Source: an uncultured Planctomycetota bacterium
GTDB taxonomy: Bacteria > Planctomycetota > Planctomycetia > Isosphaerales > Isosphaeraceae
DNA length: 64,000 bases
Direction: 5' to 3'
Assembly (NCBI GenBank): GCA_963823665.1
Contig: CAWGMQ010000004.1
Span: 704,001 to 768,000, forward strand
Below, one piece after another: positions 1 through 17,060 of the stretch. A program made the position numbers and the translations under genes. Position 1 is the stretch's first letter, and the number at the start of each line of letters is the position of its first letter. Below the pieces are notes generated by a model, which did not search any database, was not told the origin of the DNA, and saw only the letters and a program-made list of their open reading frames with translations.

Positions 1-7
1 CTGGCCG

Positions 8-89
8 GCCTAACGCAGCGCCTGGCACCCGTCCGAGGCACGCCTCATTTGTAGATCGATCGGGCGTGATCAGGCTGTTTCGGATCGGA
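8..89 (-). mobile_element. degenerate attC-like site
   Basis: Minus strand ends in canonical GTTAGGC (GTTRRRY) with partly complementary arms GCCTG..CAC..CCG / CGG..GTG..CAGGC. The 5' box reads TCCGATC rather than RYYYAAC. Confidence 0.3.
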
Positions 90-303
90 ACTCGGCGGTG
101 GCTGGCCGATTCTCGATTGTGAAGCGGGGCAGCGCGAGTATGACCATCTGGCCTGCCTTTTGGTGGTCGTCTAAATCGCTGAGATCCCCGGCACAGCATC
201 GGTTACCTCATCAACGAAGTGGCCATGCCGGAAGATATCGTAAGGGGCGATGCGATCGCCGCATGGCGCATCGTGGTCGGAGAACGCAACCTCCCAACAA
301 CCA

Positions 304-1348
304 TCAGCGTTTCGCGCCCGCCGCCGGACGCATTGGATCACCTGCGGTGACTCGCGCGGTCGGCGGCTTGCTGCTATCGGGTTGCCGTTGACCGACCACC
401 AGTTCATCGAGTAATGCAAATAAGCGATCCCATGGCCGTGCCCTCCGATTCGTAAAGTCGAGATACTGGAACGCTTCCAGCCGCGGGTGAATGGGCGTTT
501 CTCGGAGAAGCAATGGGACAACCCTTAAGCCTAGCCCCAGTCCGTATGCCCACTCATACGTGACGTACTCCGATGCCTTGCTGTCCGGTGATAAGACAAG
601 GATTACGGCGCGGGAACCAAGGATTGCTTCGTCAATCTCCTTTCTCCAATCGGTACCCGCCTCGAGAACATCTGTGTCGATCCACCCGGTGTAGCCCGCT
701 TGGGCCATGCGGGATTTCAGATTCTCCGCGAAATCACCGTCTTCTTTGGCGTGAGAAATAAAAAAAGTGCGTTGAACCTTCGGGGTTTGATCGTTTTGAG
801 TTGGGCTGTCCGCGGTTCGCTCGGCGCTGCCCTCGCCCGTATCCGTCTTCCGCTGGGCCTCTGCCAGATCCACGTGCAATTCGGGGGGAGATTCTTCTAG
901 CTGATGGAGGATGGCTACTAAGACCTCCGTAAAGTCGGCCCACATTCGGTCTCGTTTTGCCCTCGGCAGTTCGGAGATCGCGCGGCCGTCGCGCGGCCAA
1001 ACCTGATAATACGCCAGCGGAGTCTGAACCCAGAGCGCGGGTCGGACGATGATTGGGAGAACACGAAGCTGTCTCTGCTTATGTTTCTCAAGAAGTTGTG
1101 GCAGCTCTTCTTCCTGAATCCACTTTGATGCCAAGTAGTCTGGCGGAGACCAGTAGGATGGCGAGATCGGCCCGATCGAGAGCTTGAGCGATTTGCTCAT
1201 GCCAGTCGCTACCGGGTTCGGCGGCCCTGTCGGACCACACTTGGAAATCTGCTGTACGTTCGAAGGGCCGTAGAAACCTCAGCAGTTCGTCCGCGATGGC
1301 TTTATCCCGGTGACTGTAGCTCAAGAACACGACAGGTCTCGAAGTCAT
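304..1348 (-). CDS. tandem TIR-TIR domain protein (frameshift near 1140 joins ORFs 1088..1348 and 304..1200)
   Basis: TIR1 reads VFLSYSHRD...VWSD...GSDW..QI..AL..ADLAILLVS, then continues in the other frame as PDYLASKWIQEEEL. After a low-complexity linker, TIR2 reads FFISHAKED...WID...GTDW..EI..AI...VILVLSPDSKASEYVTYEW. Confidence 0.85.
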
Positions 1349-1366
1349 AACCCATTCTCCGAGGAA

Positions 1367-1464
1367 GCTGAACGCAAAAGCTCAGCAGCGGCGAACATGC
1401 TAAGAGACCGAAACTCCGAGAAACCACTATCGCGGCCTCTTTCTGCTGGAGCGTTCGGTTGGGC
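1367..1464 (-). mobile_element. integron attC-like recombination site
   Basis: Minus strand: GCCCAAC-CGAAC(5 nt)-GCTC[C]AGCAG ... CTGCTGAGC-TTTTGC(6 nt)-GTTCAGC. This matches attC geometry, including the extrahelical base in the first L box. The TIR-TIR RBS (GGAGA) and ATG follow within 20 nt. Confidence 0.65.
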
Positions 1465-1750
1465 GTGGAACCAGTCCGAATCCGGAAGGGGGACCTTAAT
1501 TGCGATCGCCCACGTGATGAAGATCCGGTCACGCGCGATACTGACCGGCGCCGTTTGCCCTGGCGCTGAACCGGTTTTCATACTAAGGCACGCCCGTTGA
1601 CCTACCGCGCGCGCCGGGCATCATCGTGCAGCCTGCCCGTTGGCCCGTCACGGTATCAGAACATGCCGCCGAATCTCGGTCAACAATCGACCCTCGGGAC
1701 ACTCCAGGATCGTGGAGCGGCAAATGGCGGTTCGGACGGGGCCGCCCGCC

Positions 1751-1800
1751 GGCCGCCGGATTTTGAGTCCGGCGCGTCTGCCATCTGCGTGACATTGGGC
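1751..1800 (-). pseudogene. 5' half relic of tRNA-Leu(CAA)
   Basis: Minus strand GCCCAATGTCACGCAGATGGCAGACGCGCCGGACTCAAAATCCGGCGGCC has the D-arm TGGCAGACGC and a perfect anticodon stem-loop CCGGA-CTCAAAA-TCCGG. No T-arm (GTTCRA) or 3' acceptor strand follows. Confidence 0.7.
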
Positions 1801-2056
1801 TGATGTTGGATTGACGTTGATTTCAGGGGTTTTGTCGAGGTCTACGATAGCCCTCGGCCTTCGCTCGCATTGTAGTCGCATTGGGCTCGCACGGGCAATG
1901 TGTGCAGAAGAACTGCAGAAGCGCTTCCGCTGGGGCATAAAAGCCAAAGCAGAGACTATGCTCTGTGACGACCGCGGGGCTGAACTGAAGTTGCTATACT
2001 CTAGGGCGCCGTACTTCCGGTTAGTCTTTTGACCTCGCTCCGGTTCGGGTGTCGGC

Positions 2057-5000
2057 ATGGTAAAGAGCGGAACGAGTGGCGGAGCGGCCGCTGCCGGGGG
2101 ATTCTCCTTTCAGGCGAGCATCGCCGCCTGGGCGGCGGTCGGTGTACTCGCGGCCCGATCCGTAACGCCCCGTTGGGGATTAAACCCCAAAGCCTATTTC
2201 ACCGAGGTTCATTGCGAGACAGGGCTGCCCGTCGATGACATAATGATCATCACATCCGAGTCCGGCGTCGTCTATCTGCAAGCGAAGCGTGGTATCTCAC
2301 TGGAGTCCGCGCCGGAGTCGCCGCTTGGATCGACAATCGGGCAATTCGTCAAGCAGTTCCTGTCGCAGCGTCACCAGGAAGGAGGTCAGCGCCCGCGGGA
2401 ACGTCCACTTGATCCGGAGCGCGATCGTCTCGTGCTTATGACCCACGGTCAAGCCCCGAGATGGGCGCATTCCGAATTGCCGCGTGTGCTAGAACGATTT
2501 CGGCAAGACGAGGGATGCGTTTCCCTCACAGATGCCGCCAAGAACAAGAATGAGCGTTCCGCAGCAGAAACAGTAATCGCACACGTTCGAGCATCCTGGC
2601 AGTCTGAAACGCAGACCGCTCCTTCACCAGCAGACCTCCGTGTTTTTTTCTCAGTGATGCGAGTCGATTCGCTCGATGTCAGAATCGACGGTATCGATGG
2701 GCGTGACGATTTCGTGGCAATGGATACGCTACGGCAGGTAGTGTTAAAGGAACCTGAACAGGCCGAAACCGCATACAAGCTCCTCAAGGAATTCTGCGGC
2801 TTACTGATAGCAAATCGTGGCAGTGCGAATGGTCGCGAGCTCGAGCGGCAGCTCTCGCGCAACAATTTAGCGGTTCGGTCGGCCATCGACCGCACTTTCT
2901 ATTCCGAGCTAAAGAAGTATGCCAAGGATTTTGGTGAACTAATCCAAGAAGAGACAAAACGGTTTGTCGGACGGGATCAGATCTTTGAGAAATTGGCGAG
3001 CTTTGCAAAAACGCACCCATGCGGCTACTTCACTATCGTTGCGGATGCTGGGCTTGGTAAGACGGCGCTCGCCGCGATGTGGGCGAAGCGATCGAGCGCA
3101 TCCGCCTTCTTCGCCAACGCGAGCGCGGGCCTGACCCGAGCTGACCAGTGCCTCAACCATCTAGCGGTCGATCTGATCAGACGCTTCGCGCTTCCGCATG
3201 ACCACCTCCCTCTCCGCGCTGGTGAGGACTCAGCTTTTCTGAGCACTGTTCTCTCCGAGGCTGTTGCTAGGTCATCGAAACCAATCTGGATCGTCGTCGA
3301 TGCGCTCGACGAGGCCGAGCCGCCCGGTCCAGGGCGTAACCCGCTACTGCTGCCCGATCGGCTTCCCGACGGTGTACACATCCTCCTGACGCACCGCCCC
3401 GGCCAGATTGCGCTTGTCACGGCCGGTGAGACGGCCGACGAGGAGTATCCGATAGCCTGGGACGACGCGGCTCAGCAAGCCGTCATAGGGGCTTATCTCC
3501 GCCAGGAAGCTGATCGGCCAGAGATCCGCTGGGCGCGTGAATCGGCAAGCCCGCCAATCACGATCGATCGGTTCGTCGACCTTCTGCAATGCAAGAGCGA
3601 GGGGAACCTCCAGTATCTTGAGTACGTACTGGCCGACATCGCCGAGAGCAAGCGGGCGCTCAGGCCGAGCGATCTCGAGTCTCTCCCGAGTAAGCTGCGG
3701 GGCTATTACCAGAAGAAGTTCTGGGAATACATGGAGCAGGTGCGCGACCGTGAGGGCGCCGGGCAATGGGAACAATTCTATGTCCCCGTGATCGAGTTCC
3801 TCGCAGCAGCGAGCGAGCCGGTGACAGCCACTTGGCTGGCCGCGCAAGTCAACCGTCAGCCGAATGAAATCGAGAGGCGCGCGCTGAAGCCCTGGCGGCG
3901 ATTCCTCAGCCAGGAGGGTCGAAGTTCGGATGAGCAAAGGCGTCCCCGACGTTGGCGCGTGGTCCATCAGTCGTTCATCGATTTTCTGGATGAGGAAAAG
4001 GTGGCCGATCTCCGCGCGGCGCACGATCGGGTCGTCAACTATTACCTTTCTGCCTGGGGCGGTCTGGAGGCTGGACTTCCCGCCCTGTTCGACCCCGCCA
4101 GACATGATGAGCTCGATGGTTATGGCCTGCGGCACTTGGCCGAGCACCTCGAACGAGCCGATCGCATCGACGACCTGCACCGACTGCTCCGCCGGGAGCG
4201 GCGCGTGGCGTTCAAGACCGCGCCATTCAGTGTCGAGAATGTCTGGTATGCTGCCCGCGAGCGAGTCTTCCAGACGGAGGGGTACCGACATGATTTGGCC
4301 CGCGCCGCCAGGTTGGTCGAAGCCTCCGCTAATACTTCCGCAGACGGGAGCGTGAAGAAGCCAATCATCGGATTTGCAATTCGCTTTGCCCTGATGTCTG
4401 CTTCCGTCAAGGACATGGCCTCGAACATTCCAGTGCCGCTGATCGCGGCTCTGGTTGCGAGAGAAGTTTGGCCCGCTTCGGAGGGCCTTGCATACGCCAG
4501 GATGCTAGCCCCAGAGGACCGGTCCGACGGTTTGATCGAAATCAGCTCGTATCTTGACGAGCACGGCAAAGAGAGGGTGCTGCGAGAGGCACTAGACGCC
4601 GCGAGGATGATCGGTGACAAATTTCGCCGGTCCACCAAGCTTGCGGACATGGGACAGATAGAGGAGGCATTGACGGCGGCGTGTGCGATCGATGATGAGC
4701 GGCGGCGCGTCGAGGCCATCGGAAATCTTGCACCGTACCTCGCAGATCCAGCGCACGTTGATCAGGCGCTGACGGTCGTCAGGGAGGTACGCGACTCAGC
4801 ACATCGAGCCCGCGGCCTGGCCGCGCTGCACCGGCCGGAGGACGCACTGACAGCGGTGCGGGACATCGACGACGAATGGGCGCGAGCCGGCGTTCTGAGG
4901 AATATCGCGCCTCGCTTGATGTATCTGTCCGAGGTTGAGCAGGCGCTCGCCATGGCAAGGGATATCCGCGACGAAGAAGCTTGCGCCCACGCTGTCGAGC

Positions 5001-6607
5001 CATTGACGATCCGCTTGACGGATCTGTGCTCGGTGGAGCACGCAGTTGCGATCGCGCGGGGAACCGAGGATCAATGGTTAAAGCGCCGAGTGCTGGCGGC
5101 ACTCGCCCTAAAGCTCGCGACGCTTGGCCTTCTAGATGAGGCATTCGTGCTCGCGCAGGAGTCCGACGACGACGAAACTCGAGCCCGGCTACTGGCACGG
5201 TCGGGGCGAGTGGCGGACGCGATAACGGCGGCTGAGCGGATCAAAGAGGACGGCGATAGAGAGTGGTTTTTGAGGGAGCAGACGTGCGAACTGGTGGAAG
5301 CGGGTCGGATCGACGACGCACTGGTCGTGGCGCGAAGGATCGATACCGAAAATGCTCGCGCTGCCGCTTTTGTTGTTCTTTTGCCAAGACTTGCCGAGGC
5401 GGGCCGAGTCGACGAAGCGCTGGCGATGGCGCAGGGGATCGGAGACGAATGGTATCGCGCCACTGCCCTGGCGGATTTGGTACGACACCTCGATCCAACG
5501 CGCACGACACAGCTACTCGCCGAAGCAAGGGAGATCGACGATGCTAGAAGCCGAGCCGAGCTCCTCGCGGCCTTGGATGAGTTGCAAGACGCCCTGATCG
5601 CCGTCGGCCAAATCGGAGTGGAGGAGGACGACCAAGACAACGTTCTGCTGGCGCTCGTGAACCGCCTTGTGATGCTGAGGAAAATCGAGGCTGCACTGGC
5701 GCTAGCGTCGAAAATCCGCGACGAAGGATCTCGATTCGAGGCGATATTCGTACTCGTGCCGCATCTCACCACGGTCAGTCAGCTCAGGGAGGCACTGGCC
5801 GTGGCACGGGTAATTGGCGACGCGTCAGAGTCGGACAGCGCACTCGCGGAGCTGGCACCGTGGCTGGCTGAGTCGCGTGGCATCGACGAGGCGCTGGCAC
5901 TGGCGTGGAGGATCAGGTCTCCCTGGGACAAGGCCCTAGCACTAGCACTGCTCGGCCGACTCCATCAGGCTATCGCCTCGGCTCGGAGAATCGATGACGA
6001 CGACTCACGGGACTTTGCCTGGGATCAAATTGTTCGCCGGCTCACCGAACTCGACCGGTTGGATGAAGCGATTGCAGCGGTGCGCGAAATTGGGAAAGTG
6101 CACGGTCGTGAAAGTGCACCCGCGGTTATCGTGTGCCGCCTGGCCGAGTCGGGTCGGGTCGAGGAGGCGTTCGCGAAACTGCGGCAGATCTTCCACAAAC
6201 AGACAAGTGAGCGCGATTTCGCGCGACTCGCTCCGAGTTTGGTTCAGTCCGACAAACTGGAAGGTGCCTTCGAAGCGAAGAACGAGTTCTACGGTCCCGC
6301 GGCTCGAGCCCTGGCCCGGGCGGAACTCGGTATGGTGGGTGAAGTGCACGAAGCGCCAAGCGAGATTGGGGAAGAGCACCGCCGTAAAGACGCGCTCGCG
6401 GCTATCGTACCTCGCCTCGCGATGCTGCCGCAGGCAGAAGCTCTGTCGCTCTTGCTTGATACGATACGTGTCTCGGCGACGCGACCGCGCTCTAGTCTCC
6501 TGCTCGACCTTGTGGCTCTCGCACCGATCATCGCCGCGATTGATCCAATGGAGGCAATCGCAGAGACATGTCAAGCGATCGAAGACGTTTTCCGCTGGTG
6601 GCCGTGA
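2057..6607 (+). CDS. PD-(D/E)xK nuclease - STAND (NACHT-like) NTPase - helical repeat protein, Avs-like antiviral NLR
   Basis: N-terminus GGFSFQ...ETGLPVDDI...VYLQAK (restriction-endonuclease-like). Walker A ADAGLGKT, Walker B WIVVDALDE, SEGNLQY motif. About 650 aa of C-terminal repeats like AL.AAR.I.DE..RA.AL. Confidence 0.85.
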   Translation: MVKSGTSGGAAAAGGFSFQASIAAWAAVGVLAARSVTPRWGLNPKAYFTEVHCETGLPVDDIMIITSESGVVYLQAKRGISLESAPESPLGSTIGQFVKQFLSQRHQEGGQRPRERPLDPERDRLVLMTHGQAPRWAHSELPRVLERFRQDEGCVSLTDAAKNKNERSAAETVIAHVRASWQSETQTAPSPADLRVFFSVMRVDSLDVRIDGIDGRDDFVAMDTLRQVVLKEPEQAETAYKLLKEFCGLLIANRGSANGRELERQLSRNNLAVRSAIDRTFYSELKKYAKDFGELIQEETKRFVGRDQIFEKLASFAKTHPCGYFTIVADAGLGKTALAAMWAKRSSASAFFANASAGLTRADQCLNHLAVDLIRRFALPHDHLPLRAGEDSAFLSTVLSEAVARSSKPIWIVVDALDEAEPPGPGRNPLLLPDRLPDGVHILLTHRPGQIALVTAGETADEEYPIAWDDAAQQAVIGAYLRQEADRPEIRWARESASPPITIDRFVDLLQCKSEGNLQYLEYVLADIAESKRALRPSDLESLPSKLRGYYQKKFWEYMEQVRDREGAGQWEQFYVPVIEFLAAASEPVTATWLAAQVNRQPNEIERRALKPWRRFLSQEGRSSDEQRRPRRWRVVHQSFIDFLDEEKVADLRAAHDRVVNYYLSAWGGLEAGLPALFDPARHDELDGYGLRHLAEHLERADRIDDLHRLLRRERRVAFKTAPFSVENVWYAARERVFQTEGYRHDLARAARLVEASANTSADGSVKKPIIGFAIRFALMSASVKDMASNIPVPLIAALVAREVWPASEGLAYARMLAPEDRSDGLIEISSYLDEHGKERVLREALDAARMIGDKFRRSTKLADMGQIEEALTAACAIDDERRRVEAIGNLAPYLADPAHVDQALTVVREVRDSAHRARGLAALHRPEDALTAVRDIDDEWARAGVLRNIAPRLMYLSEVEQALAMARDIRDEEACAHAVEPLTIRLTDLCSVEHAVAIARGTEDQWLKRRVLAALALKLATLGLLDEAFVLAQESDDDETRARLLARSGRVADAITAAERIKEDGDREWFLREQTCELVEAGRIDDALVVARRIDTENARAAAFVVLLPRLAEAGRVDEALAMAQGIGDEWYRATALADLVRHLDPTRTTQLLAEAREIDDARSRAELLAALDELQDALIAVGQIGVEEDDQDNVLLALVNRLVMLRKIEAALALASKIRDEGSRFEAIFVLVPHLTTVSQLREALAVARVIGDASESDSALAELAPWLAESRGIDEALALAWRIRSPWDKALALALLGRLHQAIASARRIDDDDSRDFAWDQIVRRLTELDRLDEAIAAVREIGKVHGRESAPAVIVCRLAESGRVEEAFAKLRQIFHKQTSERDFARLAPSLVQSDKLEGAFEAKNEFYGPAARALARAELGMVGEVHEAPSEIGEEHRRKDALAAIVPRLAMLPQAEALSLLLDTIRVSATRPRSSLLLDLVALAPIIAAIDPMEAIAETCQAIEDVFRWWP

Positions 6608-6911
6608 GCAACATGCACGCGCGCTTCCCAGCCGGAGGTGTTTACGGGTGAGAGCCTTTCGAGCAAGCCTCGGCTTTCCGCGATGTGGTTCAGGCTATGC
6701 TCGGTTTTCCTCTTTCGGTGCAAACCGCGACTCGAGGCGAAGGGCTTCGTCCAGCGCCGCGAGCTCTTCCGGCTAATCGACCAGGCATAATGACGCGATG
6801 TACAGCCCTTACCACCGGTTGCCAGGGCTTGACGCAGTGATGCGCATCTGACCCATTTTCACCTACCGCCGACGTTGATTCGCCTATAGTGTTCCGATAT
6901 ACACTATCGAA

Positions 6912-7196
6912 ATGAGGATTCTCAGCCGAAGACAAGCACAGGCGACCCGCGACCGAATCAGGCCCATGATGGAGTTCGTGTACCGCTGCCGTTGCCGCAT
7001 GGACGAACTGGGGTTCGACCCCAGCGGACCGATCTACGTTGCGATCCACCAAGCTTACGAAGCGTTGCAGGACCTAAATGCGGAGTTGTTCTGCCAATCG
7101 CACGGGCGCGAATCAGCGAAGCCACCTGCTAAGCCGCCAGGCGTCACTCGGGCCAAGGATCAGGCTCAACAATCACCCGACCGTCCGGATGATTGA
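6912..7196 (+). CDS. small hypothetical protein
   Basis: 94-aa ORF with plausible helical composition (RMDELGFDPSGPIYVAIHQAYEALQDL) in an otherwise empty gap. Confidence 0.5.
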   Translation: MRILSRRQAQATRDRIRPMMEFVYRCRCRMDELGFDPSGPIYVAIHQAYEALQDLNAELFCQSHGRESAKPPAKPPGVTRAKDQAQQSPDRPDD

Positions 7197-7258
7197 TCGC
7201 AACTCCCCATCGTTGGGAAGCGTCACAAGCCGAACCGCGGTCGGTGCGAATTTTGTCA

Positions 7259-8302
7259 TCAAGCAGGTTTGACTCCCGTCGACTCCTCGGATTTGAGGTC
7301 TCTGAGCAATCGGGCGAAGGCGGATTCAAACGAGTCGTGGTCTTTCCAGTTCGTGAAGTCGGGTATAAAGAACTTCCGAACTTCCGCTGCCAAATCTTCT
7401 CCAGAGCTGTCCGGCAGTTCCCAGGCTCTGATCCTGTCGAAGTCCGTGATCCGAATCGGGAACAGCTTGCGTCGGCCCTCGCGCTTTTCGGCTGACCTTG
7501 CTCGGCGAATTTCAGTCGCCACCCAAGTGCTCTTCATGCTGGATTCAGAGAGGACAAGTAGGAGCTTGTCGTGAATTCGGATCGCCTCGTCGATCTGGGG
7601 GTGTAGTTCTCGTCCAGCTTTCATGTGCTCTTCGTCAAGCCAAACGCGAGTACCTTGATCCCTCATGCCTACGAAGAGGCGCCGAGCAAAATCCTTGTCC
7701 ACCGAGCTATGGCTGATGAAACACGAATAGAACTGGATTGGGTTCATCGAGCCAATCAATGACGGTAGATACTCGACAAACGCGTCTGGCACACCGCAAC
7801 CTCGTAGAAATTCTTCTGGGATGTTGCCATTTACGCGCAAGAGCGTATCGATGCTGATCGTGCTCGGACCATGGTGTTGCACGGTTTCGAGGCCCTTCAC
7901 GTCGGAAAGATCCACTTTTGTGAAGGCTGTGTTCAGACACTTGCAGCTGGGAAGTTCAGCGCCGCTAAGCTTAGCCTCGGTTAAGTCGGCTCCCCTGAGG
8001 TCGGCCCCGCTGAGGTTTGCCCTGACGAAGGTGGCGCCGCCGAAGTCGCATCTAGCGAGAACGGCCCCTCGCAAGTCGACCTCGGTGAGGTCGGCGCCGT
8101 CGAGGTGGGCCTCACTGAGGACGGCCCCCGCGAGGCGGGCCATTCTGAGGTCGACCTCGTAGAGGTCGGCTTTGCTAACGATAATCCCTTGTAAGTTGGC
8201 CGCACGAAGGTCGGATTTGTAAAGCTCGGCCCGGCGAAGGCTAGGGAATTTCTCGCCCGTCCTTCGCCGTTTATTCCATTCGATGCGCCTCTGCCGCTTC
8301 AC
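7259..8302 (-). CDS. pentapeptide-repeat plus C-terminal TIR domain protein, native N-terminus probably lost
   Basis: A(D/N)L(S/R)G-type pentapeptide repeats, the linker GLETVQHHGPSTISIDTL, then TIR FYSCFISHSSVDKDFARRL...SMKSTWVATEI. The ORF part above ~8300 is antisense to the S1/P1 fragment, so the start is uncertain (GTG at 8302 used). Confidence 0.85.
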   Translation of the reverse strand: MKRQRRIEWNKRRRTGEKFPSLRRAELYKSDLRAANLQGIIVSKADLYEVDLRMARLAGAVLSEAHLDGADLTEVDLRGAVLARCDFGGATFVRANLSGADLRGADLTEAKLSGAELPSCKCLNTAFTKVDLSDVKGLETVQHHGPSTISIDTLLRVNGNIPEEFLRGCGVPDAFVEYLPSLIGSMNPIQFYSCFISHSSVDKDFARRLFVGMRDQGTRVWLDEEHMKAGRELHPQIDEAIRIHDKLLLVLSESSMKSTWVATEIRRARSAEKREGRRKLFPIRITDFDRIRAWELPDSSGEDLAAEVRKFFIPDFTNWKDHDSFESAFARLLRDLKSEESTGVKPA

Positions 8303-8737
8303 GCCGTATCGATGTTCACACACGACTTCGTTCCACCAGAAGGCGACAAAGGCGGCAACAAAGTATTCGTGAAGGTGAGGGAAGATTCGCATACCATCAA
8401 TCTACATTCTCTCTGGGACGGTCTAATTCAAGGCGCGGACCGGTTCCAGTCCGTACGCAAGCGGGCGCTTGGTTTGCTTGGAAGGCCAGACATGACCAGG
8501 AACAAGTTCCCACAACTTTCGTCCGTAACCGCTGAAGACTGGACGAGAGAGCGCTTCGAGCTTGCGAAGTCGGTCGCCTACCAGGACGGTGCTATTCAGG
8601 GAAGCGGGGATAAGAACGACGGAGACGTTCTGCCGGATAACTATCCATCGACGTGCAAGAGCGTTGCTGAGCAGCATGTCGTACTCGCCGGCTACCGACT
8701 GGCTGACTTGTTGAAAAGCTTGGGGCCCTCGCTCTGA
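8294..8737 (+). pseudogene. C-terminal fragment of an S1/P1 nuclease
   Basis: PLHAVSMF...GDKGGN...NLHSLWD...LAGYRLADLL are hallmark S1/P1 motifs. The N-terminal half and the HxxxDxHQ segment before PLH are absent. Confidence 0.8.
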
Positions 8738-9062
8738 GACTCTCCGCGGATGGTCAAGACTCCGTCCGTGCGGTTTGCACGCGGATTTGCCGGCAATGGC
8801 GAGTCAGGATACCCGACCTGAGCTGCATCTAGTGCGCATGCAGATCATCTGCTAAGCTAGCGCCGCCCGGGACAGGACTTCTGGCGTTCTACGATCCTCG
8901 AGCTGCCCTATAAGGTCTGCCTCGCTGGTGTTCACTGGCTTTGCCTGTGCAATCCGTTGCTAACCGTTCGGTAGGTCAATATCTCAAGTCTGTAGATCGT
9001 CTGCCAATCGACCGAGTCTGGTCTCCACCGCCTGCGTTGCGCTCAAAGCGAAGACAAGGTGG

Positions 9063-10553
9063 ATGACTGTGAAAAAACCGTTCGACGACGCCACGGAACT
9101 GTTTGACTTCCTCGAAGCGGATGAGCCCGACCGCTACGTTTTCCGGGGCCAGACAAGAATGTATGACGGCCCGGTGCTTCCGTCCGCGCTGAGAGATCGT
9201 TTCACGCCCTTCGATACATCGAAGGGACCATTGAACTGGGCTGGCGTGACCCTGTCCAAGACGATGATCGACGGTCAATTCGCGGCCCGAAGGCGAGCTG
9301 TTTGCAATTTGGACGAGAAGTCAGAAGAGGCTGACGACGGGAAGACAACCTGGGAGTTGCCGGAAACCGCCCATCAACACGGTTTCCGTGAGTTCTTCAA
9401 CCGATCGCATTCTCAACGAATCAGGGACGTAGGAAATGTTCTGCGCGAGAGCGCAATACCTGGGATTTCAGAGCTTTTCGGGAGCGACCTAGGTGACCTT
9501 CTATGCCAGCAGTACGGCTTCACTTCGAACGCGCTATATGTGACGACCGACACCTCAGTCGCTATGTTTTTTGCGACACGCGAAGCGCCATTTTACGGCG
9601 TGGTTCCAAATTCCCCGCATTGTGGAGTCGTTTATCGATGGCCAAAAGATCGCGCGACGATCGCCCGAAATTATCTACTACCACTTGAAGAAAATGCTGG
9701 TTTCGATTCGATACCAATCAGCTTCTCCAACTTCATCAAGGACAGCGCCGATCTGAAAATCGTCAAAGACACGCTGGTGCGGTACACTTCCGCAACAGGC
9801 GAACGCCAGAAGCGCATGATGTGGATCGTTAGCGAAGGCGAGCGCCGCAGCCTCGATGCCCTCTGTTTTCCCACGGGCGCACTAAATCGAAGCCGAGTGG
9901 GACGTCAGCGTGCAGCCCTGCTTTGGCCCCACTTCGAGATCGTCAACTCCCTCGTGCCTCGAAATGATGGAGATCATGTTGCGCTGATTGGTGACCTACT
10001 CAAGACGCACTGCGGCGAGGCTTTCAGTTTCCGACACCGCGGCGTAAGCCCTCCCGAACGGCTAAGTAAGTTTGACCTCTGGCCATCGATCCGGGAAGCC
10101 AGACATCCACCCTCTAGACTCGGTTCCGGGAAGCCAGGGAAGCCAGGCAAGCCAGACATCCACCCTCTAGACTCGGTTCCGGAAAAACCGAGGGAAGCCG
10201 GGAAGCCAGGGAAGCCAGACATCGGGAAGCCAGACATCCACCCTCTAGACTCGGTTCCGGAAAAAGCGAGGCAAACACGGCTCGGAGCGGAGCCCGAGGG
10301 GTTTGCCCGGGTTTGCCAGACACCCACTAATCCTACGGGGTTTGCCAGACACCCACTAATCCTACGGTGGGAAGCGAGTTTCTGGAATTCTGGTGGCCCG
10401 CGGAACTTGGGTGTCTGGGATTCTCGCGACAGCAGTTCAGCGATGCGATTGGGAAGCCGGATCACGAAGAAAGCGGCAGCGCATCGATTCGCTAGACCAG
10501 GCGGTGTAGGGCGTATAACGCCGACGATTCGGCTGCGAATCTTGGACACTTGA
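9063..10553 (+). CDS. FRG domain protein whose 3' end reads through a repeat cluster
   Basis: YVFRGQ and CQQYGFTSNALYVTTDTSVAMFFA match the FRG motifs (FRGQ; QHYG.PT.LLD.T....ALFFA). After ~10093 the translation is repeat-derived (GKPGKPDIHPLDSVPEK). Confidence 0.7.
   Translation: MTVKKPFDDATELFDFLEADEPDRYVFRGQTRMYDGPVLPSALRDRFTPFDTSKGPLNWAGVTLSKTMIDGQFAARRRAVCNLDEKSEEADDGKTTWELPETAHQHGFREFFNRSHSQRIRDVGNVLRESAIPGISELFGSDLGDLLCQQYGFTSNALYVTTDTSVAMFFATREAPFYGVVPNSPHCGVVYRWPKDRATIARNYLLPLEENAGFDSIPISFSNFIKDSADLKIVKDTLVRYTSATGERQKRMMWIVSEGERRSLDALCFPTGALNRSRVGRQRAALLWPHFEIVNSLVPRNDGDHVALIGDLLKTHCGEAFSFRHRGVSPPERLSKFDLWPSIREARHPPSRLGSGKPGKPGKPDIHPLDSVPEKPREAGKPGKPDIGKPDIHPLDSVPEKARQTRLGAEPEGFARVCQTPTNPTGFARHPLILRWEASFWNSGGPRNLGVWDSRDSSSAMRLGSRITKKAAAHRFARPGGVGRITPTIRLRILDT
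10093..10420. repeat. short repeat cluster with core CCAGACAYCCA
   Basis: GG(G/C)AAGCCAGACATCCACCCTCTAGACTCGGTTCCGG occurs three times (10093, 10146, 10224) with partial GGGAAGCCA units. GGGTTTGCCAGACACCCACTAATCCTACG occurs twice in tandem (~10309-10366). An inverted core TGGGTGTCTGG lies near 10408. Confidence 0.9.
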
Positions 10554-10620
10554 GCCATTTTTCGGTATCGACGCGCAGACCTGGGATCAGATCCGGTAGA
10601 GATCCTTGGATACCGCTTGA

Positions 10621-12436
10621 TCATTCCGCAGCGCTGAACACCATGACGCCCGGCTCGTTCACCGCGGTTCGCTTCCCGGTTTTCGGATCGATTGCCACCA
10701 CTGCAAGTGTGCCACGCAGACCCCCTGCGGTCGCGGCGGGTACCTCGGTCACGTTCCAACCGCAGGCTTTTAGCTTCGCGACGAACTCGGAGCTGTAGGC
10801 TCCCTTTGGAATCGACGCCCGCTCCGGCGACCCGATCGGAGCGACTTCGCCCGAGGCAAGCTCGGCAAGCAGCGGCGGAGCCGCCAGGACCGTCGCAAGA
10901 TCCTCGCGCCGGCCCAGAACCCCAAGCAGCAACCGGATGCTCTCCGGTATCAGCGACGCACCAATCGAGCCCGTCGCCAGCACCGGCTTGTCGTCCGCGA
11001 ATGCAATGGTGTCAATGATCTGATGCGGAACGCGTTCGCCCGGCTTGAGCCCTGCGAGCGTCGTCTGCTGAAACCCCGCGGAATCAGGGATCGGCACGCC
11101 ATCCACAACGATACCCGTATCACCCCAGATAACGGCATTGATCGTATGGGTCACGGCCGCAATGTTCCCCTCCTTGTCGATGACGACAATCGCATTGGAG
11201 TGTTTCGGGTCGTCGCTCCCAGACCGCTGCCCAGAAATCTGCCCGAGCAACGGCGCAACCGCCGCGGCGAAACCCTTCCCGAGTTGCTCGCCGGCCGAAA
11301 TGTCGACGCCCTTGCCGCGCAGCAAGCTCGATGTCTTTCTATCGAGTGCAGGAGATGAGCCGGCGATCTGGCTAATGCGGTTCATGGCCTGGAACGTTTC
11401 CAGCGTCATTCCAGTAAGGACCTTTCTGGTCAAGTTTCAGTGCCTCGGCCAGATTCAACCCGACCAACAAGGCGTACGCACCGAGATTCGGTGGACCGTT
11501 CACATACACCGTGTGGCCGAACATCGTCTCCTTGTAGGGCTCGCTCCATACTGGCTTGTATCGCTTCATGTCTTCAAGAGTCGCTTTCCCGCCTTCGCGC
11601 TGGATGATCCTCACGAAGTTTTGCCCCCACTGACCGGTATACATGTAGCGTGATCCCTGCTCACTAACCGCTTTCAACGTTTGAGCCAGCTCGGTTTGGA
11701 CGAACAGATCACCGGCCTTGGGCGTCTCGCCGCGTTCCTGGCGGCTGAACTGCCAACCCTCCGGCGTGCGGGCTAAAGCCTTTGCGCGAAACGCGAAATA
11801 ATACTGAAGAGCCGGAGAAATGCGGATGCCGTGCTCCGCATACCAGACGGCCGGCTCGAATAGCTCGCGGAAGGGCAGACGCCCGAAACGGCTGTGCATG
11901 GCCTCAACACCCGCCATGAACCCCGGCACGAGCGTCTCACGCCCCTTGGCGCCACCGGCGGTCGGTTTGGGCACTAACTTCGCCAGGGCCGGGCCCAGGT
12001 CGCTGACAGGGATGCTCTTCGGATCAGTCTCGCCCAGATACGAATTGAAGCCCGCATCCATCGAATAAACCTTGCGGGTTTTGGCGTCGTAATAGACCAT
12101 TGTGAACACGCCCGCGTACGACACAACGGAACCTAACTGCGTCGCGACCTGCGTCAGTGCGGTGGTCGCGGCCGCATCCGCCGCACTTCCTCCGAGCTTG
12201 AGCGCCCGGATCCCGGCGTAAACCGCAATTGGCGAGACCGTCGCCGAAACAAGACCACCCGTGCCTTCAATTTGTCGTTTTTCGGGCGGCGACACAACAA
12301 GGCTCTCAAGTTTCTCGACTCTCTGTCTCTCGGCGTCTGGCCAGTTTGAAGGCGATAGTCCGTCGCCGTAGCAACTCGATGCGCTCGCGAGCACAAGCAC
12401 GACGCTTGGTGCGATTAAATTCTTGAACGCAACCAT
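10621..12436 (-). CDS. ggt: gamma-glutamyltransferase family protein, secreted (frameshift near 11400)
   Basis: Signal-like N-terminus, GGSAADAA, VPGFMAG..AMH.RFG.LP, GG..TLEDM..Y. The small subunit reads HSNAIVVIDKEGNIAAVTHTIN..WG. Confidence 0.85.
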
Positions 12437-12644
12437 GAGCACTCCTTTGTGAGCGAGCCTACAGGATGTCCTTAGACGCGCAGAGTGATGGCGATGCGGG
12501 AGGGCCTTGATCACTTGAATTCTTGGCGCCAGATCGCCCGGGCCGTCGGAACGCTCCCAGTATACGCTCGCGCTGACCAGCCCTGTTACGACCCGCCGCG
12601 CCCGACGTAACCGTCGAGTGCCCGACCGCCTCGCGAAGCCCTAA

Positions 12645-13106
12645 GTGGCCCCTTTTCAGAAATAACTGTGGGGTTGCAATTTTAGTGTGTTTGGCTCGGT
12701 GAAGCACGCTTTGAGCGAACCTATCTCGACAATTGATTGTGAAGACGCTACGCACAAACAACCTTTAGAATTCTCTTGGTTTCCTTCGTTTCCTTCTGTT
12801 CCAAAAAGGCACAGTTGCTCAGTTACATGAAATTACTCGACGTGCCGCTGGGTCTGTTGTTCAACTTCCACGAGATCAAGCTCTCGGACGGGATTTCGAG
12901 GCTGATCCTGCCGGGTGCAAATCAGTCTTGACCAGAAGGAAACAGAGTCAACGAAGAGCGGTGGCTCGCAGTTTGGGCGGGATTGGCGGAAGAGTGCACT
13001 GGAACTCGCCGCTTCACTCACGCTTTCGTCGTCGGGAAGGAGGCTCGGCTCGCAGGAGCACGCTTTGAGCGAACCTGACTCCACAACTAACTGTGAACTG
13101 GACCAC
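12645..13106. mobile_element. MITE-like non-autonomous element
   Basis: Flanked by TAA direct repeats (12642-12644, 13107-13109). Imperfect terminal inverted repeats GTGGCCCCTTTT...TGTGG versus GTGGTCCAGTTC...TGTGG. An internal ~41-bp direct repeat starts AGCACGCTTTGAGCGAACCT at 12703 and 13057. Confidence 0.5.
12806..12931 (+). pseudogene. C-terminal fragment of a GxxExxY protein
   Basis: Translates as KAQLLSYMKLLDVPLGLLFNFHEIKLSDGISRLILPGANQS*, the typical GxxExxY C-terminus (AQLL.Y.KL....GLL.NF). It has no N-terminus and is absent from the ORF track. Confidence 0.8.
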
Positions 13107-13347
13107 TAAGGCGGTGATGGCCAAGCGATTTACAGGCATTGCACTCACCCAAGCATTCGTAGTTGGTGTGTCGTTGCGGCGAGCGCTCGCTCGTGCGACG
13201 CCAGGACTGCCCCTTTTGTTGCCTGTTCGGGTAAGATGGTGTAATCCATCGGCACGGAAAGCGAAGTACTTCGAGGCACCAAGCTGGGAGACAGGGCAGC
13301 CGCGGCATAAACTATGGCCCGGCTTGGCGAAAGGATGAGCATTTGCG

Positions 13348-16300
13348 ATGAAGCGGACGGGTCGTAGCCGCGCTCGACGCCTCTGGCGGGCCGGGGCGCT
13401 TCTGGTCCTTCTGGCCGCCACGGGGTTCATCGCGGCGCTGCCGTGGGTGCTCGCCTTGCCGTTTGCGCAGCAGCAGCTCAAGGCCGCCGCCAATCGAATT
13501 CTCGCGCCAAGCCGAGTCGAGTTCGGCTCGATCGCACTTTCCTGGAATCACTCCACGACGATCAAGGGTCTGGTGCTCCATGACGCACAGGGGGATGAGC
13601 TGCTGGTTTCGCCCCGCGCGGTCCTCAACTGGAGTCTATCGCAAATCCTCTTCGCACAACCGATCGATGCCTCGCTCGCGATCGAGAAGGGCGATCTCGA
13701 CATCGAGCGGTTCACTGATGGCTCGGTCGACCTTTACGAAACCCTCAAGCCTGTCATCAGCGAACATCCCCCAAAACGCCTCGTCATCCGTATCCCGAGT
13801 GGAAGCCTCCGGTTTCGCGACCCGGCTTTCTCCGAGCCGGTCGTTGCCGAGCAGGCGGAAATGACGATCAATCTCGGAATGCTCAATGAACCGATCCGCT
13901 GGGACATTCACCTGAACCGGACCGATCAGGAGAAACGGCTCGACTTGGTCGGGATGTACAGCCGCGCTGAGATCGATTCGAGCGGCGAACACGATCTGGA
14001 GCTGTCGCTCACAGCAGCCAACTGGCCGTGGACGCTGACTAACCCATGGATTGACTCGCGCGGCCAGTTGAACGGCGCGCTCGCAGGAAGGCGAAAGCTC
14101 GGACGCATCTCGATCGAAGGTGACGCAACTGTGAACGATCTCGTCGCTCTCGGCCCGATCATCGGCTCGGATACGCTCCACATCGAGACGGCACGGGCGA
14201 GTTGGAAGATCGACGGCGACGGCACGGCCTGGACCGTCGAGCGGCTCGACCTCACATCTCCGCTGGCAACAGTGCAAGCGGCAGGGTGCGTGCCGCCGAC
14301 TCCCGATCGCGGCGCCTGGTTCCAGGGCGATCTGGACCTGGCCGCGCTGGCACGCCAGCTTCCGCAGACGCTCCATCTGCGCGACGACTTGCGAGTCGAG
14401 CGCGGCGCGGCGCGACTGCGAGCCGATGTCGAATCGAACGCATCGGGAGATCTCCACGTCTGTAATGTTACGGGAAACGTGACAGACTTGATCGCCCATC
14501 AGGGCCAAAAGACCCTGACCCTTACGGAACCCGCGAGCTTGAATGCGAAGATCCGGAAGTCCGGCGACACGACCGTGCTCGAGCGATTCCAGATCCAGAC
14601 GCCATTTCTGACGGCCGAGGGAGAGGGAGACCTCGATCGCGGCATCGCCGCCCGGGCGACCGTCGATCTTGCCGTCTTCCGCGAGCGCTTTCGCGACTGG
14701 CTTGATCTGGGAGGGGTCGTTCTCGCCGGCAAGGGAAAGTTGAACGCTTCGTACAGGCGGCAAGGGGAGGCTTTCGATGCCCGGGCGACTGCCGAGCTCC
14801 GCGACGTGCGCCTCGACGGCTTGCCGGTCCTCGGGCAGATCGAGCGCGAGCTGGTCACGTTCGTTGCGAGTGCCGACGGTGGTACCTCGGGCTCGGGCTT
14901 GCCGCGTGATTGGCGAAACCTGACTCTCGAGGCCAGGAGCGGCGCGGCCCAGGGCAAGGTCGCGGCGGCCAACGATCGAGCGGGCCACATGAGCTTGCGC
15001 GCAACCGGCCAGGCCGATTCTAGCCTGAGTGGCCGGCAGGGCCGCGCTTTGGCCGAGCTGAGCGCGATTGGAGACGCGGCGGGCTGGACTGCCGAACGCA
15101 TCGTGCTCGGTCTCGCACCGAGCAAGCCCGGAGAGGCAAGCAGCATGGATGAGGCAACCGTGCGCTGGAACGGCCGCGGGCGCTACGACTGGGCCGGCGA
15201 CGTACTGACCATCGAGTCCTCGCCGACATCGCTGCCCGGCGGTGAGAAAGCGAAGCACCTGACATGGATCGCGGGTGACCAGAAAGTGCGGTTGAGCGGG
15301 TTGCGATCCTGGCCTTCCACGCAGATCGAGGCGGCCGCGAAGCTCGATCTGGCCTCGGCGGGAAGGGTGCTGGCGCCCGACCAGGAAGCCTGGGCGGGCG
15401 GGCTCGATGCGCTGCGTGCGCATTCGGCCCGATCGGGACCTCTGGAACCTGGGTATTCGGGTTGACCTGCATGAGCCGGCGCAGCTCAGCAAGGGAAAGC
15501 CGCGGTTCAAGATCGATGGCGACGTGAGCCTCGCCGTGACGGCAAAGTATACGCCCGCTCTGGATAAACTCGATGTGATCGAGATGGGGCTCACGGCGCC
15601 CTACGTGCAGCTCGACGGAACAGGATCCGTCATGAACCTGGCCGACGGGCCCGAGCTGGACTTGAAGGGCATGCTCGCGCTGGATTGGCCGGCGATCGAG
15701 AAGCAACTGGCACAGAAAGTTGAGCCCGGTGCGCGGATCACGGGCCGGCCACGGCAGTGGCGTCTCTCGGGAAAGCTCCCGGCCAACCCCGCGATCGACC
15801 GGCTCGGCTCGCTGCGCGGTGAGATCGGCGTTCAGATCGACTCGCTCGACATCTTCGGGATGCGGCTCAGCCAGACACCAATCGTGGTGCGAGCCTCGGA
15901 CGGCCGGCTCTCAATCGACCCGATCGATGCCAGGTTGAACGGAGGCATATTGCACGCCGACCCGGAGATCTCGCGCATGAAGGACAATTCGAGCTGGCTG
16001 AGGCTCAGCTCGGAGACCCGTCTGGAAGGGGCCGTCATCAACGACGAGGTCTCGCATCGAGTGCTCTCGTTCGTCGCTCCGGTGCTGGATGGTGCCACCC
16101 GTGTCCAGGGCCGGGTTTCGTTCGAGCTGGCAGAGGCAGTCTTCCCGATCGCGGGGGCGCCGGAGGCACCGTATCTGGCCCAGGGCAAGGTCCTCTTCGA
16201 CGACGTGCGGTTCATGCCCGGAGAGCTGGCCGATCAGTTGCTCGGCGTATTCCGGCTCGATAGCAAGCCCCTGATTGAGCTGAGCGAACCGATCTCGGTC

Positions 16301-16776
16301 CGAGTCACCGAAGGGAAGGTCCATCAGCGGGGTCTGGTGCTCCCGGTGGGCAACCTGGCTAGAATCGCACTCGACGGCTCGGTCGATTTCCAGAAGAACA
16401 TCGACATGGTGGCGCGGTTCGCGCTCAATCCGCCGCAGAACGCGACTGCCGGTACTCTCACCACTGGTCGAGACGGCCCGGTTTGAGCTTCCCGATCCGC
16501 GGAACTCTCGCGAAACCGAAGATCGACGGCGAAGCCTTGAAAGAGAAATGGAAGACATTCGGGGGCGGCCTGCTGCAAGGTTCACTCGAAGCCGGGGTCA
16601 ACGGCCTGCAAATGCTGCTTCAAGGCATGCCCGATCAACCATTTCGCGGGATCTTTCCGCCCGCGCGTGCCAGGCCGGCGAGCCCCGAAGACCGGCGCCG
16701 GTTGAAAGATGACCGGCGGAAAGACCGGCTGGAGAAGAAAGCCGCTCGCCAGAAAACGCAGCCGCCACCGGAGTAG
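13348..16776 (+). CDS. large AsmA-like envelope protein (frameshifts near 15410 and 16460)
   Basis: N-terminal TM anchor followed by a long beta-rich body. Three consecutive same-strand ORFs join, and the C-terminal PIRGTLAKPKID motif is typical of AsmA-like proteins. Confidence 0.65.
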
Positions 16777-17060
16777 CACCAAGCGAAGCATCATGACTGT
16801 CTGCACACGCGAGTTTGCTGCGGCAGATCGCGTGTTGATTCGGGTTGAGATCGGCGCATGTCGTTATTCAGGTAATGTTCTGGGTTTCCTATCCCTTGCG
16901 TGATCGAGGGTGCGTTGCTACTCTATTTTCTGCGAGGCTTTCGGGCACCAGTCTCGTCCAATGCATGGGCAGGTGGAGCAGCGCGCCCTCCCTGCGATCG
17001 CGCCTCCGGCGGTGCGACGGACGGTCGCTCGCTCAGCGCATCTGGTGACGGAACTGGCCG

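Follow-up and report, generated by a model that had tools for sequence, protein, structure and literature searches.

We analyzed a 64,000-nucleotide stretch of DNA from an uncultured soil planctomycete of the family Isosphaeraceae (hereafter, the window; assembly GCA_963823665.1, contig CAWGMQ010000004.1, positions 704,001 to 768,000), focusing on its first 10 kb, where several genes related to prokaryotic immunity systems cluster. These are a gene encoding two TIR domains (TIR-TIR), a STAND NTPase gene with an N-terminal nuclease domain, a gene combining pentapeptide repeats with a TIR domain (pentapeptide-TIR) and an FRG-like gene; a junction resembling an integrase attachment (att) site, with a fragment of a tRNA gene, lies among them (Table 1). 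A preliminary description, made from the sequence alone, had recognized most of these parts. The three TIR domains in two genes are borne out (TIR_2 scores of 102 bits in the frame 304-1200 and 46 bits in the frame 1088-1348 of TIR-TIR, and 78 bits in pentapeptide-TIR), as are the 1516-aa open reading frame (ORF) with a nuclease head and an NTPase domain and the tRNA relic, which is 100% identical to positions 15-43 of the tRNA-Leu(CAA) of this genome and is cut just after the anticodon stem. Other assignments need amendment: the two TIR domains of TIR-TIR are real but read in two frames, pentapeptide-TIR retains its TIR domain and catalytic Glu but has lost its normal start, and the FRG assignment gains from two of seven homologues scanned that exceed the Pfam cut-off (PF08867), whereas the gene itself scores 18.2 against 25 bits and lacks its C-terminal quarter. 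A proposed attC-like site has to be dropped: there are no strict RYYYAAC...GTTRRRY pairs in positions 1-14000, and the 4 loose pairs in 1-11000 compare with a mean of 4.86 in 50 Markov-simulated controls. Two further parts were not on the earlier list: an S1/P1 nuclease gene, of which one half is present, and a 94-codon ORF that is conserved.

Table 1. Features of the region, in window coordinates
Feature	Position	Strand	Evidence and remarks
TIR-TIR gene of ~345 codons, frameshifted by one base near 1140-1146	304..1348	-	TIR_2 matches; homologue alignment across frames
attR-like junction	1756..1921	-	8-nt direct repeats 1903-1910 and 1914-1921; ~120-nt spacer; tRNA-Leu(CAA) fragment 1756-1784
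Intact 1516-aa chimeric STAND gene	2057..6607	+	Cap4-fold head (aa 1-277), NACHT/NPHP3-like NTPase, long C-terminal region with putative helical repeats
Nuclease head, PDC-M54A family; D60, D61, Q75-x-K77 intact	2057..2887	+	PADLOC, fold, conservation
Conserved module: promoter-like leader with short palindrome, and 94-codon ORF (6912-7196)	6822..7226	+	80-87% DNA identity to 3 other copies
Pentapeptide-repeat-TIR gene without its first ~18 conserved codons	7259..8290	-	TIR_2 78 bits (7259-8392); TIR Glu present
S1/P1 nuclease gene, C-terminal half	8293..8737	+	PF02265 positions 131-255 of 258
FRG-like gene, 496-aa ORF	9063..10553	+	Homology over aa 1 to ~345 of a ~455-aa family
Short direct repeat block interrupting the FRG-like gene	10092..10366	.	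Families D2, D10, D11
Gamma-glutamyltranspeptidase (GGT) gene	10621..12450	-	Common to same-genus G429; right boundary of the slot

The TIR-TIR, STAND, pentapeptide-TIR and FRG-like genes form no single system. The 10-kb region lies in a variable chromosomal slot and is probably a patchwork of separately acquired, mostly broken immunity-type genes. Four lines of evidence lead to this reading: the comparison of gene order with relatives, the att-like copy between TIR-TIR and STAND, the damage to the genes, and the failure of their homologues to co-locate. The synteny comparison covered five relatives, the fifth of which, G443, has no match to the MFS gene. The distance between the MFS and DUF748 genes is 0.3-0.4 kb in G442, G435 and G437, 6.05 kb in the same-genus G429, and 16.76 kb here. 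The interval from MFS to GGT spans 13.9 kb here (from the left boundary of the slot, 3.3 kb before the window start, to 10621) against 3.5 kb in G429, where the slot holds 4 ORFs unrelated to those of the window, with no blastn match between the two slots. The three main genes (TIR-TIR, STAND and pentapeptide-TIR) alternate in orientation, and in this assembly the TIR-TIR, pentapeptide-TIR, S1/P1 and FRG-like genes are all damaged, by frameshift or truncation. GC content at third codon positions is 0.60-0.69 in the island genes, as against 0.76-0.77 in three genes of the flanks, and GGT has 0.68; the 20 kb upstream contain ordinary genes, DUF1559 genes among them. These DUF1559 genes and the ECF-kinase modules agree with a planctomycete origin. 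The genes of the patchwork were likely acquired separately: they would have arrived one by one in the same slot, and later deletions and a repeat insertion would have damaged the neighbors. Taking the region as a whole, we consider it probable that such a patchwork slot contains a sole intact defense-type gene, the chimeric Cap4-nuclease STAND, which acts alone in the manner of Avs proteins.

The chimeric STAND gene

The 1516-aa gene is the sole intact defense-type gene of the region. Judged by sequence comparison, it is a chimera in which a head of the PDC-M54A type is followed, from residue ~280, by a different body made up of a NACHT-like NTPase and repeats. The PADLOC model PDC-M54A matches aa 7-299 over its positions 2-291 of 1657 (E 9e-66), and the remaining ~1240 aa are without a match; all five head-type proteins tested match this model end to end, whereas the body in the window is unmatched. 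No PADLOC (2023) or NCBIfam model matches the core NTPase and body, the protein matches in sequence neither an Avs chain of the PDB nor a PADLOC Avs model, and no other M54 components were detected among the 7 island ORFs tested. The PADLOC check proposed in the preliminary description identifies the head as PDC-M54A and, weakly, the first TIR domain as ThsB, but not the STAND body.

The model of the head has a predicted local distance difference test score (pLDDT) of 89.8, and of only 37 when folded from the single sequence. Its best match is the Cap4 domain of Avs3 (8dgc; Foldseek E 8e-5; VIA Z 14.1, root-mean-square deviation 4.3, 225 aligned), followed by Cap4 (Z 12.5), HamA (Z 11.6) and then LmuA; the best six matches are all anti-phage nucleases. 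D60, D61, Q75 and K77, the putative PD-(D/E)xK site, are present and are 95-100% conserved in 149 head homologues. The NTPase domain is recognized by NPHP3_N (26.1 bits, cut-off 24.8) and weakly by NACHT, with Walker A at residues 329-336, Walker B at 411-419, and Walker residues invariant in 17 sequences. The C-terminal region shows repeats at the DNA level and matches to designed solenoids; TPR_30 is found in homologues, and the protein itself has no Pfam TPR match.

The homologues of residues 1-700 (n=104) split into a set matching the head and a set starting near residue 282. In the former set, three proteins align at 56-59% over residues 1-277, and more distant ones continue weakly to residue ~420. 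A single one of the 104, P0001, crosses the junction of head and body, at 65% identity; this second instance, from another sample, implies that the fusion is old and has been retained. Initial single-protein scans of genome contigs and of metagenomes gave no matches, and a 50%-representative library yielded 1179 head homologues at E<=0.001. Among the best 150, which were classified, the M54A body is present in 108, another body in 12 and a body of the window type in none; the remaining 30 consist of the head only or are cut. In the closest relatives of the body (<=70% identity in the matched part), the body is preceded by DUF4062, trypsin, CHAT, caspase or a short leader rich in Gly/Val/Ile. 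Such leaders, rich in Gly/Ala/Val/Ile, take the place of the effector in the body relatives P0003, P0007, P0009, P0011, P0021, P0022 and L192; they may be amyloid (BASS-type) signaling motifs.

The head was found in 3 of 401 genomes of the phylum, this one included, and has 4 weak matches on plasmids. The only other such head in the same genome, denoted G000 (C10:1460564-1464651; L015:6065-10152), is 60% identical and is followed by a hydrophobic segment and a TPR body with no NTPase match. In a tree of 30 rows with a midpoint root, both heads belong to one clade with P0225 and the M54A proteins P0026, P0033 and P0035 (support 99/97), and their direct grouping is weakly supported (88/72). P0026 has no sequence match in the PDB, and the limited literature collection searched contained nothing under PDC-M54; in 10.1101/2024.01.29.577857, PDC systems have the status of candidates that await study.

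Avs3 and Avs7 are antiviral STANDs with Cap4 effectors (PMC13581612). The window protein resembles them in combining, in one gene, a Cap4-fold N-terminal nuclease, a central STAND NTPase and a long C-terminal region with putative helical repeats, but its NTPase is of the NACHT/NPHP3-like kind, in a family whose heads vary, and the protein has no sequence match to Avs. The earlier likening to Avs is supported for the way of working, with a Cap4 head and a Walker NTPase, and not for membership of a named Avs family: the combination of a Cap4 head with a NACHT body matched no library model tested, and no match in PADLOC (2023), NCBIfam or PDB sequences places it with a named Avs. Variation of the kind seen among its body relatives is familiar from bacterial NLRs that bear varied N-terminal effectors or short motifs of the amyloid type (PMC7159879; 10.1101/2024.11.07.622273); in contrast to leader-bearing NLRs, the leader is here replaced by the nuclease head, so that no motif is left for signaling to a neighbor.

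With moderate confidence, based on the analogy with Avs3 and Avs7, we favor the view that the STAND protein senses phage by itself, in the manner of Avs proteins. The events would be binding of a phage protein to the repeat region, oligomerization of the NTPase, and DNA cutting by the clustered Cap4 heads, which would kill the infected cell and abort the infection; a TIR protein would not be needed. The gene amounts to a natural effector swap, with a PDC-M54A-type Cap4 head on an NLR body that usually bears a protease, DUF4062 or a short leader. If the protein protects, it would show that an NLR family can be rewired straight to DNA cutting and would add a sensor with an unknown phage target.

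The alternative that the chimera is a recent accidental fusion or a non-immune signaling protein, with no anti-phage role, appears unlikely. The scarcity of the combination, which is absent from the best 150 head homologues and, among the 104 homologues of residues 1-700, recurs only in P0001, would fit a recent accident, but the 65% identity of P0001 across the junction points to an old, retained fusion, and the 4.5-kb frame is intact with the nuclease and Walker residues kept. The decaying neighborhood, the mostly ECF/kinase/TPR signaling cargo at other att-like copies and the frequent switching of STAND clades between defense and other roles (PMC13581612) also speak for this alternative, whereas the restriction of the six best fold matches to anti-phage nucleases argues for defense.

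The att-like junction and the 94-codon module

The tRNA scar is one of about 30 att-site-like copies in the genome, distributed over 7 contigs. The DNA of 1756-1921 has 23 further matches, 9 of which are near full length; with a looser threshold there are 31. The copies examined all share one layout: a pair of direct repeats, a spacer of ~120 nt, and a tRNA-Leu(CAA) fragment that begins in the D-arm. The intact tRNA (on contig C8), used as a query, gave 40 matches (40 of 50 candidates scored), including 1 intact tRNA, 21 3' fragments that are nearly complete and 7 fragments, that of the window among them, whose cut lies at positions 41-46. In the window, ARAGORN detects no tRNA, and Rfam gives only 2 chance-level matches in 1-14000. 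From the copy pattern, the direct repeats appear to be integrase arm sites; the arm side faces the STAND gene, which places TIR-TIR outside the unit.

Two of the att copies have a tyrosine integrase directly after them, and a block of integrase, methylase, RepA and ParA precedes a third. The window itself contains no integrase by tblastn with three integrases of this genome or by PF00589, the nearest of 20 PF00589 matches being ~140 kb away. In relatives, among the matches listed, segments of 1-10 kb are stacked behind the tRNA. Arm repeats and a tRNA 3' fragment close each segment, and BLAST with three integrase queries shows an integrase in few of them.

Accretion of islands at tRNA att sites is already known. 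In particular, CIMEs are cis-mobilizable elements that accrete in tandem at tRNA att sites (PMC5704250). The integrase-less segments stacked at tRNA-Leu(CAA) in the relatives, closed by arm repeats and a tRNA 3' fragment, are similar. The window copy has the att site of a tRNA fragment and arm-type repeats, but it differs in lying on another contig than the tRNA gene, in being cut after the anticodon stem and in having a single recognizable end, the pair of attL and attR not being retained. On planctomycete tRNA-Leu islands or fragments, nothing on topic was found in the literature collection searched.

The opposite side of the STAND gene is occupied by the 94-codon module. The ORF has 7 matches in the genome, its family is present in 10 of 121 family genomes, and it has no Pfam, PADLOC or NCBIfam match and no usable Atlas match. 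Most copies keep a TTGAC-type -35 box and, immediately ahead of the start, a palindrome that may be akin to a repressor or SOS-type box; the gene may be leaderless. Five of the 7 matches are located 4.9-6.3 kb inside an att-like junction and share one orientation, the cargo in between being of the kinase-WD40, kinase-TPR or STAND kind, and G442 shows the same geometry at 3.8 kb; the stretches fetched for the other two, and for 7 loci of a more distant subfamily, contain no tRNA fragment. A rough estimate of the chance of this spacing is 0.002 per copy, with the proviso that nearby copies may share descent.

The junction and the 94-codon ORF bracket an integrase-less unit of ~5.5 kb that holds the STAND gene, and unrelated cargo is bracketed likewise elsewhere. 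The unit is putatively the remnant of an integrase-less element that entered a secondary site via the anticodon-loop core, and the integrase for its entry would be encoded elsewhere. No second att fragment was found in or near the window, only one end, so that the far boundary rests on the 94-codon module, and no excision joint is present in the public short-read contigs, which over this region are sparse (150-370 nt) and leave 1-1736 uncovered. Possibly, though with less than even chances, the att-like copy was instead carried along passively when a tandem array at tRNA-Leu, of the kind seen in relatives, was rearranged, and the att-STAND-94-codon unit never moved as such. The single end, the distance to the nearest tyrosine recombinase match and the 136 nt between att and head, which are not homologous to the equivalent spacer at the second head locus, speak for a passive move; the exact cut after the anticodon stem, shared with 6 other copies in the genome and several in relatives, fits recombination at secondary sites instead, and the spacing between att and the 94-codon ORF recurs with different cargo. 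The repeated att junctions offer a traceable route for the build-up of cargo in very large planctomycete genomes.

Both Cap4 heads of the genome lie just inside an anticodon-truncated att copy, at 136 nt in the window and ~450 nt at the second locus. A far-reaching and quite improbable extension would make the integrase-less tRNA-Leu(CAA) att units, spread to secondary sites across these very large planctomycete genomes, a workbench for immune receptors, with the att-proximal head as a mobile effector that captures further sensor bodies and the window gene as a new Avs-type family.

Several other att loci deserve mention. The locus L010:987-9789 (G000 C4:565-574 kb), with an integrase, an Eco57I-type methylase, RepA, an RHH protein and ParA followed by an att copy, looks like an integrated plasmid-like element, and at L009 an integrase, a coupling protein and ParB follow another copy. 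At L020:11042-19967 (G000 C8), a GMT-wHTH and DUF5131 pair and a type III restriction-modification pair are found on the arm side of an att copy, a second defense-type cargo. Two arm types occur across the copies of the genome, with no difference in spacer layout or tRNA fragment; this points to a pair of related integrase specificities. The tandem arrays at L058-L071 (G442, G410, G446, G409, G433, G445, G439, G429, G437) contain ECF sigma factors, Ser/Thr kinases, TPR/WD40 proteins and small toxin-antitoxin-like pairs. The notion that att copies are general defense hotspots was mostly rejected: their neighbors are chiefly ECF, kinase, TPR and WD40 genes, with two loci of the methylase or restriction-modification type (L010, L020), in a survey whose second half was labeled mostly by BLAST, with 16 of the ORFs run against Pfam.

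Co-occurrence of the gene families

The preliminary description had offered two readings of the cluster, a hotspot of independent modules and an undescribed multi-component system of TIR proteins and an NLR, and had suggested a search for co-occurrence in other planctomycete genomes. In the loci examined, homologues of these families never occur together. The 59 loci with a relative of the NTPase core (core loci; 32 reach 18 kb) contain no pentapeptide-TIR, FRG, S1/P1, 94-codon ORF or head, and the 12 closest have no TIR domain. Conversely, core, head, pentapeptide, FRG and S1/P1 are all absent from the best 80 of 261 metagenome TIR loci, and partner genes are found in 0 of 13 stretches with pentapeptide-TIR and 0 of 8 family stretches with the core. 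Among 120 family genomes, many of them incomplete, 8 have the core, 11 have pentapeptide-TIR and none has TIR-TIR (apart from one single-TIR match) or an FRG-like gene; in the 2 genomes with both the core and pentapeptide-TIR, these are on different contigs.

Besides the single att end, the lack of an excision joint and the unmatched STAND body noted above, several observations weigh against the patchwork reading or limit it. Many of the core loci are short; of the best 80 TIR loci, 40 match both TIR domains and 15 of these reach 4 kb, and the TIR profiles come from one family. Pairing does occur among distant relatives: a TIR ORF stands apart from the STAND gene in 3 of the 59 core loci (L132, L134 and L135, the last perhaps a split N-terminus), and a TIR domain is within the STAND ORF in 5. 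One of 40 TIR-TIR loci (38 ORFs scanned) adjoins an nSTAND1-WD40 gene, and one TIR-TIR locus is near a protein with an LmuA-type head. In G443 (L159:8774-10913), a fragment of the 94-codon ORF and a convergent pentapeptide-TIR gene are 1 kb apart, an arrangement that resembles the window and was seen in 1 of 13 stretches. Finally, the frameshift in TIR-TIR may be an assembly or sequencing error.

The TIR-STAND fusions in distant core loci and the TIR-TIR locus next to an unrelated STAND also speak for a multi-component system, in which TIR-TIR, pentapeptide-TIR or both make signals or serve as NADase effectors with the STAND protein as the sensor. The clustering of TIR_2 matches is beyond chance, with 3 of the 18 matches in this genome of 16.46 Mb falling inside 7.3 kb, and all three TIR glutamates are present. 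Such a system nevertheless appears highly improbable. The genes alternate in orientation, the att-like junction separates TIR-TIR from STAND, pentapeptide-TIR is without a start, the STAND protein bears its own nuclease effector, no ThsA or cyclase model was matched, and none of the core, pentapeptide-TIR or TIR loci examined pairs these families. The tempting TIR-NLR system, being without support, drops off the list of candidates, and the hotspot of independent modules is the reading that agrees with the synteny, the att-like copy, the gene damage and the absence of co-location.

An adjacent pair of TIR genes, also in line with a multi-component arrangement, is found elsewhere in the genome (L025:7756-11832; G000 C10:1207.8-1211.8 kb), where a TIR ORF and a TIR-nSTAND1-WD40 ORF overlap by 23 nt, either a TIR pair or a frameshifted TIR-TIR-STAND.

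The damaged genes and the flanks of the slot

In the alignments of TIR-TIR with homologues (5 of 5), residues 1-73 follow one frame and ~70 to the end another, with one extra base. This frameshift is perhaps an assembly error, because the DUF748 gene is in four pieces compared with an intact orthologue and short-read contigs differ from the window by one-base indels at 16980 and 26820; the assembly likely carries indel errors. If the frameshift is one of these, TIR-TIR is likely a separate, solo defense gene. Its family comprises 263 proteins at E<=1e-20 (best non-self 67%), and both putative catalytic Glu residues are present, conserved in 97% and 100% of 105 homologues. The neighbors of TIR-TIR loci vary (95 of 108 ORFs scanned), with ThsB, PDC-S64, HEC-09, NsnA, AbiU, an LmuA-type head and SEFIR seen once each; given these varied neighbors and the lack of a fixed partner, TIR-TIR looks like a solo gene that frequents defense neighborhoods. 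It has no plasmid match. The likeness to Thoeris ThsB is confined to TIR domains with a conserved Glu and a weak match to the ThsB model PDLC00420, which involves the first TIR only; NCBIfam ThcB4 scores 25.8 bits against a cut-off of 220. As the preliminary description had remarked, no ThsA-type effector is visible: none was detected among 7 island ORFs (PADLOC), 13 ORFs (Pfam) and 13 ORFs of the upstream 20 kb, nor is there ThsA among the 95 neighbor ORFs scanned from TIR-TIR loci. No nucleotide cyclase model of CBASS or Pycsar matches near the TIR or Cap4 genes, in the island ORFs or the upstream 20 kb.

The matches of pentapeptide-TIR homologues (5 of 5) begin at their residue 19, at 8281, and the listed ORF, up to 8392, extends into antisense S1/P1 sequence. 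Two divergent genes, pentapeptide-TIR and S1/P1, are thus without 5' ends at one shared junction, which a short-read contig (8195-8429) crosses with zero differences; the N-terminal half of S1/P1 was not found in -6000..14000. Pentapeptide-TIR has 2 paralogues in the genome, and no description of such a gene in phage defense was found in the literature collection searched.

The FRG-like gene has 22 homologues, at 36-65%, mostly of 449-500 aa. Full-length homologues cease to align at 10088-10115, one continuing weakly to 10256; the conserved C-terminal ~110 aa of the family are nowhere in the window, and the last ~150 codons of the ORF are non-homologous, consisting of repeat DNA and downstream read-through. 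A short-read contig is identical over 10259-10514, in the repeat region. Frg domains are described as effectors of the ART superfamily, possibly NADases, in PMC9503650.

The slot of G429 (L137:7284-10779) carries conflict-type cargo of another kind, namely genes for an Imm10 immunity protein and an M78 peptidase, with two small ORFs besides. In the 3.3 kb before the window (G000 C4:700700-704000), which are part of the variable slot, the codon model calls no gene, and short tandem repeats are present. Beyond the right boundary, GGT is split in two (10621-12514), and the four pieces of DUF748 span 13348-16776. Dispersed intergenic repeats, a 51-nt pair and a 29-nt inverted pair, are located at 12693-12743, 13047-13097 and 12773-12958; one of them is common to L013 and other soil contigs, and these are probably REP-like elements.

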